DNA of 24,511 nt from a virus (taxonomy: Duplodnaviria > Heunggongvirae > Uroviricota > Caudoviricetes), in the IMG/VR virus record IMGVR_UViG_2874956758_000006, positions 1 through 24,511 of that record; one strand, written 5' to 3'. Positions 16,538 through 17,313 of this stretch are shown here, piece after piece (positions within the stretch are counted from its first letter, which is position 1; every line of letters starts with the position of its first letter). The notes below the pieces were generated by a model. That model made no database searches. It was not told where the DNA came from and saw nothing but the letters and a program-made list of their open reading frames with translations. A program made the position numbers and the translations under genes.

Positions 16538-16809
16538 CTGTTCTCCAATGACTAGTCTAAAAACTAGTATTAAGACTATCACTTATTTAAGTGATACTGG
16601 TTGTCTGGAGATTCAGGGGGCCAGTCTACTGGTTGTGTGAGAACTTCAGTAAAGATACCACCAAAGCCCGGAGGTGGTGAAATAAAACCGGGCACAACAC
16701 GAAGGCGCATTTCCGGTATCCATAAAGAGTCGGTCTTGTCTGTGAAATTTAAATGGTGGGAGTGCGCTTCCGGTTGTAAATAACGACATTGCTGTGTGAA
16801 GTACCAGTT

Positions 16810-16850
16810 GGCGGCATCGGTTTAATTGCTGGCTGATGTCCGCCCTTTTT
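16810..16850 (+). terminator. candidate intrinsic terminator
   Basis: GGCGGCATC - 16-nt loop - GATGTCCGCC followed by CTTTTT. Confidence 0.35.
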
Positions 16851-16931
16851 AAAGTGAATTTTGTGATGCGGTGAATGCGGCTCAGCACACGCGGAACAGT
16901 TAAAACAGTAAGGAAAATCCCTTATTCCGGC

Positions 16932-16953
16932 GTTAATTGTTAACTGGTTAACG
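16932..16953. promoter_or_regulatory. three GTTAA(T/C) hexamers at exact 8-bp spacing (candidate operator array)
   Basis: cGTTAATtGTTAACtgGTTAACg; the GTTAAC copies are palindromic; followed by direct repeat AGGCACC x2 (16964-16977). Confidence 0.35.
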
Positions 16954-17121
16954 TCACCTGGAGGCACCAGGCACCGCATCAACAAAGTTCACTTCGGTGA
17001 TGAAAGGAAAGAGAAAATGTTGAATGTAGCTATTGAAAACCAGAACGGGTGGAATTATAGTGCACCTGCACCTCATAAAACGGGTGCCGGGCGTGGAAAC
17101 CCGAAATCATTCACGGCGCAT

Positions 17122-17144
17122 AACCGCGCTCAGGCGGTTTTTTT
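17122..17144 (+). terminator. candidate intrinsic terminator in the rha leader
   Basis: AACCGC-GCTCAG-GCGGTT followed by TTTTTTT. Confidence 0.4.
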
Positions 17145-17313
17145 ATGCGTTAAGCACAGCCACATTCGCATTATGGTGGGGCGTGCAGGGCAGCCGCAAG
17201 GCTGGCCGGGTTCCGTGATGACCGGTATTTCCACCCCTGTACGTCTCACCACCCTTATGGTCGTGGAAAACCTCGGTGGTGAGTTAATCAAATTCATCGC
17301 GGAGGCTGCCATT

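Follow-up and report, generated by a model that had tools for sequence, protein, structure and literature searches.

What occupies the roughly 680 nucleotides (nt) between the insertion sequence IS2 and the phage gene rha, and where does translation of rha begin? The locus lies in a 24,511-nt stretch of tailed-phage DNA (virus record IMGVR_UViG_2874956758_000006, positions 1 to 24,511), hereafter the window. An earlier note, made from the letters alone, found no convincing gene at 16634-17313, proposed a regulatory leader or a small structured RNA, and asked whether rha starts at 17017 or at 17314. That last question was the right one to ask. We are fairly confident that the segment consists of two known prophage RNA modules, one directly after the other, and that they belong to the early-left operon of a lambdoid prophage of the Rac/Qin kind, an operon interrupted by IS2. 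The second module (17017-17316) would be an RNA immunity switch of the P4/P1/Gifsy-1 type that controls rha. The idea of a regulatory region with small RNAs (sRNAs) therefore survives. However, this is not one leader but two unrelated modules, the second with a candidate promoter of its own.

The second module and the gene it precedes contain the following features.

17017-17865, + strand: long open reading frame (ORF) of 282 codons, "Ash-Rha", whose ATG is 51 nt upstream of the IsrK 5′ end; analogue of P4 eta
17033-17061, + strand: sigma-70-like promoter, TTGAAA-17 nt-TATAGT, 10 of 12 consensus matches, ending 6 nt 5′ of IsrK
17068-17144, + strand: IsrK sRNA, the equivalent of P4 seqA; Rfam isrK (RF01394), 67.7 bits against a gathering score of 50
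17093-17099, + strand: site b1, GUGGAAA, in the loop of IsrK hairpin 2; pairs with b′
17107-17116, + strand: site a1, UCAUUCACGG, single-stranded in IsrK; pairs with a′, with one bulge
17169-17256, + strand: C4 antisense RNA, the equivalent of P4 CI and Salmonella STnc1160; Rfam C4 (RF01695), 81.9 bits against 45
17173-17175, + strand: AUG at the 5′ base of C4, by position the first AUG of Gifsy-1 orf45
17211-17221, + strand: site a′, UUCCGUGAUGA, in a C4 loop (17210-17221); pairs with a1 and a2
17228-17234, + strand: site b′, UUUCCAC, in C4; pairs with b1 and b2
17263-17269, + strand: site b2, GUGGAAA; pairs with b′
17294-17304, + strand: site a2, UCAUCGCGGAG; 11 base pairs with a′, -16.5 kcal/mol
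17314-17865, + strand: rha proper, 183 codons, Phage_pRha domain, protein start MATIPALSHP

The C4 match spans the whole model (positions 1-87 of 87), and the RNA folds at -47.3 kcal/mol with a z-score of -4.4. Its long closing stem and two internal hairpins are maintained by compensatory changes: across 17 sequences, with P4, Gifsy-1 and prophages of Arsenophonus among them, both partners have changed in 16 of the 27 pairs without loss of pairing. IsrK comprises hairpin 1, hairpin 2 with the b1 loop, the single-stranded a1 and a terminator at 17122-17144, which a terminator scan resolved into a hairpin (17122-17139) and a T-run to 17144. Compensatory changes were also seen in hairpin 1. MAFFT and RNAalifold misaligned the IsrK terminator, of which two types are present, so only hairpins 1 and 2 were used. 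The 5′ half of IsrK further matches the Rfam c4-a1b1 model, at 25.7 bits and below its threshold. By Rfam, the same architecture occurs in the Gifsy-1, P4 and Arsenophonus prophages, with the P4 isrK match at seqA and the C4 match at CI.

The antisense sites connect these RNAs to rha. Site a2 covers the GGAG of the rha Shine-Dalgarno sequence GGAGG (17301-17305), which ends 8 nt before ATG 17314. Our comparison set was 98 fetched loci, designated by L-numbers, of which L098 is P4. Among 48 unique relatives there are 16 combinations of a′ and b′, with at least nine a-types and at least five b-types. In every combination a1 and a2 track a′, while b1 and b2 track b′. Mean energies of cognate versus non-cognate duplexes are -14.6 versus -5.5 kcal/mol for a′/a2, -11.6 versus -4.8 for a′/a1, -9.5 versus -2.3 for b′/b2 and -9.4 versus -2.1 for b′/b1, so that cognate pairs are more stable by 7-9 kcal/mol at all four interfaces. 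Covariation across homologous prophages, which the earlier note had suggested analysing, is seen both in the C4 stems and in the a and b sites. The three-way covariation and the cognate duplex energies argue strongly, on comparative grounds, for an action of C4 on the rha ribosome-binding site and for 17314 as a regulated start.

The a- and b-types assort independently; L049, for example, joins the a-type of the window to the b-type of L001. One Shigella chromosome, that of S. flexneri SFBU1023, holds two IsrK-C4 modules (L003 and L006) that differ in both types, as expected if the types are mutually insensitive immunity specificities. Some prophages and genomes have two modules, and a further IsrK-C4 module lies in the prophage at L053 (1-179, - strand).

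The candidate promoter at 17033-17061 may be the analogue of Gifsy-1 PisrK and P4 PLE. Promoter-like pairs occur at the same position in Gifsy-1, in P4 and in the alternative upstream module of L063 and L094. In these two loci, inserted DNA of some 0.9 kb that contains small ORFs (about 1340-2230 in L063, and the equivalent in L094) separates the first module's spacer from IsrK; behind it come a terminator and another promoter, TTGACG-17-TATATT. IsrK is therefore a portable unit that can stand behind different promoters. Directly upstream of some rha homologs, a match to sRNA-Xcc1 (RF02221) takes the place of IsrK-C4, at 2367-2456 in L031 and 2342-2431 in L090; L005 has matches in the same placement at 1145-1228 and 2559-2645. 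This suggests interchangeable RNA cassettes before the same gene.

The position of the rha start is complicated by the upstream reading frame. The earlier note had observed that the frame of ATG 17017 crosses the second terminator and continues into rha, and indeed it does, for 282 codons. In relatives from E. coli, the Prokaryotic Genome Annotation Pipeline (PGAP) calls a Rha of 282-284 amino acids from this ATG, with 17017-17313 as coding sequence. The long ORF matches Pfam Phage_ASH (PF10554) at residues 14-109 (63.8 bits), which is exactly IsrK, C4 and a2, and Phage_pRha at residues 120-203. The statement that there is no convincing gene holds for 16634-17016, whereas 17017-17313 had to be tested in view of the PGAP call and the Phage_ASH match. 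We dropped hidden genes from consideration in the former interval, where four ORFs of 60-80 amino acids on both strands were checked and none matched Pfam or PHROGs.

The variation within 17017-17313 does not resemble that of a protein-coding gene. Variable sites at codon positions 1, 2 and 3 number 60, 60 and 58, compared with 44, 32 and 79 in the first 300 nt of rha. The even distribution indicates that there is no purifying selection at the amino-acid level. A 282-amino-acid Rha conserved in its amino acids, which the earlier note had named as evidence against its own proposal, is thus not what the relatives contain; instead, the region varies as paired RNA.

Nevertheless, the frame is kept open. 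An ATG at -297, -294 or -291 begins an uninterrupted rha frame in 45 of the 49 unique relatives; of the four exceptions, three have a single extra T in a T-run and one (L031) has a different upstream module. Among 44 sequences, columns with polymorphic stop codons number 14 and 13 in the other two frames and 0 in the rha frame. With equal chances for each frame, this avoidance has a probability of (2/3)^27 = 2e-5 over all columns, and of 1e-3 for the 17 columns downstream of 17173. In the divergent lineage of L037 and L065, indels of +1 and -4 restore the frame. We conclude that 17017-17313 is probably kept translatable while its sequence is free, and that it is kept for regulation rather than as a protein domain. 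The 282-amino-acid product is not supported as a conserved protein, and its reading frame is probably functional in the sense of P4 eta. ATG 17017 is usable only on transcripts that begin upstream, because it lies 51 nt 5′ of the IsrK start.

The alternative that fares best is that the region is purely non-coding, with translation from 17314 only and the open upstream frame inherited by chance. We consider this unlikely, although it accommodates several observations. The GGAGG is well spaced before 17314 and is a conserved C4 target, no amino-acid-level constraint is seen upstream, and more distant systems have no long ORF. The relatives are also fairly close, so an open frame could be inherited. 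However, inheritance does not readily explain 27 independent polymorphic stop positions in the other frames and none in that of rha, nor the frame-restoring indels. In addition, P4 has the same nesting, and translation has been shown experimentally for Gifsy-1 orf45 (PMC4825925) and, according to the summary of PMC10111431, for P4 eta and kil.

It is far less probable that 17017-17313 encodes an N-terminal "Ash" domain of a 282-amino-acid Rha and that the RNA matches are by-products of conserved coding sequence. Such a domain would fit the PGAP calls, the Phage_ASH score together with the five PHROGs over this stretch, and the open frame with its conserved ATG. It would not fit the equal variation of the three codon positions, or compensatory variation in RNA stems and coordinated change at complementary, non-collinear sites 100-200 nt apart. 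Moreover, a promoter and a terminator would lie inside the supposed domain, and Gifsy-1 and Arsenophonus keep the RNAs although the frame is closed.

PF10554 and PHROGs 995, 821, 6928, 3960 and 29966 model the translated IsrK-C4 region, corresponding to 17056-17343 in the window and 8330-8700 in P4 (L098). "Ash domain" annotations on Rha, Bro and antirepressor proteins therefore probably mark the IsrK-C4 RNA module. A more general proposal, which we put forward tentatively and which may well fail, is that the Ash domain of many such proteins is no protein domain but the translated footprint of this module, kept free of stops so that ribosomes arriving from upstream can override it. If so, what is known of P4 eta would hold for lambdoid prophages in general, and the a and b loops would form an independently assorting, combinatorial immunity code of at least nine by at least five types, with different types present together in one genome.

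Returning to the RNA immunity switch, we infer from the homologous systems how it might operate; termination, RNA processing, the decoy role of IsrK, the translational override and an antirepressor-like role of Rha are all drawn from them. Transcription would start from the 17033-17061 promoter at about 17068, and most transcripts would end at 17144 to give the short IsrK RNA. Read-through transcripts would contain C4, probably released from them by processing as a stable RNA. The b′ and a′ sites of C4 could then pair with b2 and a2 on the read-through mRNA, covering the rha Shine-Dalgarno sequence so that no Rha is made; as in P4 and P1, transcription of the genes farther downstream may subsequently be cut short. 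The a1 and b1 sites of IsrK would serve as decoy targets that compete for C4 in cis and in trans, so that the ratio of IsrK to C4 would set the switch. On transcripts arriving through dicF from the early promoter, ribosomes starting at ATG 17017, which is in frame with rha as P4 eta is with kil, might cross the IsrK terminator and C4 and so override the RNA immunity.

The first module runs from 16795 to about 16995.

16795-16850, + strand: divergent DicF-like sRNA in the position of E. coli K-12 dicF; Rfam DicF match below the gathering score
16851-16995, + strand: dicF-dicB spacer (the dicB 5′ untranslated region in the Qin prophage), STnc100/PasD-like, from alignment to K-12 and a partial STnc100 match
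16932, 16939 and 16947 (starts), + strand: three GTTAAY hexamers, spaced 7 and then 8 bp
16962-16975, + strand: AGGCACC tandem repeat, read from the sequence

In an alignment to K-12 Qin, 16795-16850 takes the place of dicF in the ydfABC-dicF-dicB operon, and is followed by the dicF-dicB intergenic spacer of about 145 nt. The predicted RNA has a stem of 13 pairs (16810-16844) and a T-run (16846-16850), and folds at -20.3 kcal/mol (z-score -2.7). Rfam DicF (RF00039) scores it at 28.6 bits (E 5e-4) against a gathering score of 48; K-12 DicF reaches 76.7. By position this is a divergent dicF allele; by score it is not a member of the DicF family. The terminator scan found a hairpin at 16813-16840 with a T-run to 16850. 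Both terminators described in the earlier note are accordingly real, with five terminator-like sites in 16300-17900 compared with 1.8 ± 1.4 in shuffled sequence, and in annotation both belong to sRNA genes, DicF-like and IsrK.

All six lineages that were aligned, K-12 included, have an identical core of about 70 nt in the spacer, in which both the GTTAAY array and the AGGCACC repeat lie. Both repeats had been recognized before, with small errors: the hexamers are not at an exact 8-bp periodicity, and the tandem had been placed at 16964-16977. In the array, copy 1 is predicted to pair with copy 3 in a hairpin of 10 bp (16929-16938/16946-16955), the loop of which is copy 2. A second predicted hairpin (CCUGG/CCAGG, 16957-16961/16967-16971) bears the AGGCACC repeat. 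The two correspond to hairpins of the Rfam STnc100 model (RF02076), which matches with 31.8 bits against a gathering score of 47 and over model positions 22-154 of 206 only. K-12 is also below threshold (34.4 bits), and there the model extends from the dicF 3′ end into dicB. STnc100 and PasD are described prophage sRNAs (bioRxiv 10.64898/2026.05.13.724894).

The triple GTTAAY array is exact in 65 of the 98 loci, including K-12 Qin. It belongs to dicF/dicB and not to rha, because no rha follows it in K-12 and because about 1 kb separates it from rha in L031, L063, L090 and L094. That the array and hairpins are protein-binding operators for rha, as the earlier note had envisaged, or a nut-like antitermination site acting in DNA or nascent RNA, deserves almost no credence, for although three near-identical palindromic hexamers lie exactly conserved within 21 bp, their place in the Qin dicF-dicB spacer, their distance from rha elsewhere and the folding of copies 1 and 3 into an STnc100 model hairpin all speak against it. 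Nor was any boxA/boxB-like element seen, although no search was aimed at one.

Homology to Qin stops at the dicB start codon, which aligns at about 17012, within a few bases of ATG 17017. We rejected 16925-17010 as a 5′ remnant of dicB, since the K-12 alignment identifies it as spacer upstream of this start. In L002 (4110-4193), PGAP annotates a "partial DicB" pseudogene over the GTTAAY array, which by the same alignment lies upstream of the true dicB start.

Several observations weigh against the two-module explanation or parts of it. The 17033-17061 promoter is a consensus match only, and such sites are about as frequent as expected (2 found, 1.7 expected). Upstream of 17173, stop avoidance reaches a p of about 0.02, with only 10 comparison columns. 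In Gifsy-1 the frame is closed, with a TGA just before orf45 and a UGA overlapping the anrP AUG. It is also closed in Arsenophonus, where an ORF of 35-36 codons stops about 25 nt before the rha homolog. The long ORF is missing where other upstream modules occur: neither L063 nor L094 has the ATG at -297, stops lie at -198 in L094, and L031 is altogether different. The published Gifsy-1 model differs in detail from those of P1 and P4, in that a b1:b′ helix in cis locks an inactive fold and translation of orf45 is required (PMC4825925); the interactions in the window may therefore act in another direction than the one given above. The translational override, if real, is probably disabled in the window because IS2 separates the module from the early promoter.

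Regarding the first module, the DicF-like RNA remains under the Rfam gathering score, and it is no more complementary to the ftsZ leader than shuffled sequence, in a weak test. The duplex energy was -30.6 against -32.5 ± 4.5 for shuffles, whereas K-12 DicF gave -38.5 against -31.3 ± 4.0 (RNAduplex with whole RNAs, which discriminates poorly).

The left border of the segment is formed by a simple IS2 insertion.

15295-15299 and 16630-16634: left and right copies of the 5-bp IS2 target duplication CTGGT, read from the sequence
15300-16629, - strand: IS2, directly left of the segment

In homologs L050 and L061, which lack IS2, the equivalent of window position 15299 is joined straight to 16635. 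The IS2 junction was absent from 5,426 complete E. coli genomes and from a scan of genome contigs, in which close relatives are present. The window begins within another, inverted IS2 copy: positions 1-917 are 100% identical over 917 nt to 15298-16214, 14.4 kb away. Given the intact target duplications of the second copy, it was not involved in an inversion.

In annotated E. coli relatives the gene order is a helix-turn-helix repressor, DUF1391 (ydfA), dicF, rha, ydaE, recE, xis and int. A 96-codon ORF at 14989-15279 (- strand), which is directed away from the site of IS2 insertion and matches nothing in Pfam, is a possible moron because it breaks the + strand row of ydfA-like genes. At 21931-22109 (- strand) there is a full-length match to the RalA antitoxin sRNA (Rfam RF02694; 216 bits, gathering score 170), which implies that the window, like the Rac prophage, has a putative type I toxin-antitoxin pair ralR/ralA.

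The locus opens no long-standing question, and its main value is in annotation and as a covariation data set. What automatic annotation calls a 282-amino-acid "Rha" is probably a merger of an RNA switch and a regulator of 183 amino acids, and published "Rha/Ash domain proteins" (e.g. PMC8951638) are to be read with this merger in mind. For a known mechanism, the locus offers clean comparative data: three-way covariation of antisense sites, and upkeep of a frame without amino-acid constraint. It also places a P4-type immunity cassette exactly at the dicB start of Qin/Rac-like prophages.

IsrK-C4-rha has the immunity architecture of P4 (seqA-CI-seqC), Gifsy-1 (isrK-orf45-anrP) and P1 (c4), and is thus of an already described kind rather than new. 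The first module is closest to dicF-dicB of K-12 Qin, with which it shares the position and terminator of dicF and the same spacer core of about 70 nt with the GTTAAY array and the CCUGG/CCAGG hairpin. It differs in its divergent DicF body (28.6 versus 76.7 bits), and the IsrK-C4-rha module stands in place of dicB from its start codon onward.

In phages P1 and P7, ant is under the control of c4, which works by way of complementary regions upstream (Citron and Schuster 1990, as cited in PMC7313666). Like the window, the P1/P7 immI operon (c4 RNA, icd, ant) has two recognition sites a′ and b′ with targets over a ribosome-binding site. It also has features that the window would probably share: an antisense RNA cut from the leader of the transcript that it represses, an antirepressor-like controlled gene, and specificity types that are the determinants of heteroimmunity. 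By contrast, the window has no separate icd gene, its target overlaps the regulator gene's own Shine-Dalgarno sequence, and the IsrK terminator lies between a1/b1 and C4.

In Gifsy-1, the isrK promoter drives transcription of anrP, and the long transcript is translationally silent (Hershko-Shalev et al. 2016, PMC4825925). Short IsrK in trans activates anrP translation 139-fold, and helix b-I was proven by the compensatory mutations G28A/C162U and G31A/C159U (PMC4825925). When we mapped the published positions onto the Gifsy-1 sequence, helix b-I was exactly b1:b′. The authors also remarked on STnc1160, a stable RNA that lies downstream of IsrK, and on the resemblance to P4 seqA/CI, and Hfq binding of IsrK and trans activation of a downstream gene are shown only for Gifsy-1 (PMC4825925). 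The window shares the order and spacing of promoter, IsrK, C4-like RNA and antirepressor-like gene, as well as the AUG at the C4 5′ base and the b1:b′ complementarity. However, we did not find coupling of the orf45 type. AUG 17173 is in frame with rha and no stop follows, so that it would give a 230-codon form. Whereas the Gifsy-1 orf45 UGA overlaps the anrP AUG and is preceded by an in-frame TGA, the window ORF is fused to rha and open to 17017. The Gifsy-1 module also adjoins antQ in the late region, whereas that of the window sits in the early-left operon, with dicF on one flank and the recE side on the other.

For P4, the C4 and isrK Rfam models detect relatives of CI and seqA, and CI lies within eta, a gene of the Bro network (PMC10111431). 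According to the summary of that paper, which we combined with a direct reading of the P4 sequence, a constitutive promoter is internal to eta, and interactions between CI and seqA bring about the termination of its transcripts; Kil is made when one of them occasionally reads through. Only transcripts from a late promoter farther upstream yield full-length Eta, and its translation prevents termination (PMC10111431, summary). We found that a 214-amino-acid ORF of P4 (8812-8168) runs through seqA and CI and matches Phage_ASH, as does the long ORF of the window, and that the two are similar by BLASTP (E 7e-15). The kil gene is the last 65 codons of this ORF, and its product begins with MATTLTPSHP, so that the short genes share the start MAT..(L/P)SHP.

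The differences are that the short nested gene encodes a Rha of 183 amino acids in the window and the 65-amino-acid Kil in P4, that the window element belongs to the early-left operon of a lambdoid prophage and not to a P4 satellite, and that the spacer between seqA and CI is about 100 nt shorter in the window. In addition, the upstream promoter would be the prophage early promoter, whereas that of P4 is the late promoter PLL. The order is nonetheless the same in both: start of the long ORF, internal constitutive promoter (putative in the window), seqA/IsrK with its terminator, CI/C4, and a target over the ribosome-binding site of the short gene. The window thus has the nested arrangement of eta and kil, with the ORF at 17017-17865, the candidate promoter at 17033-17061 inside it, and the rha ATG at 17314 in frame.

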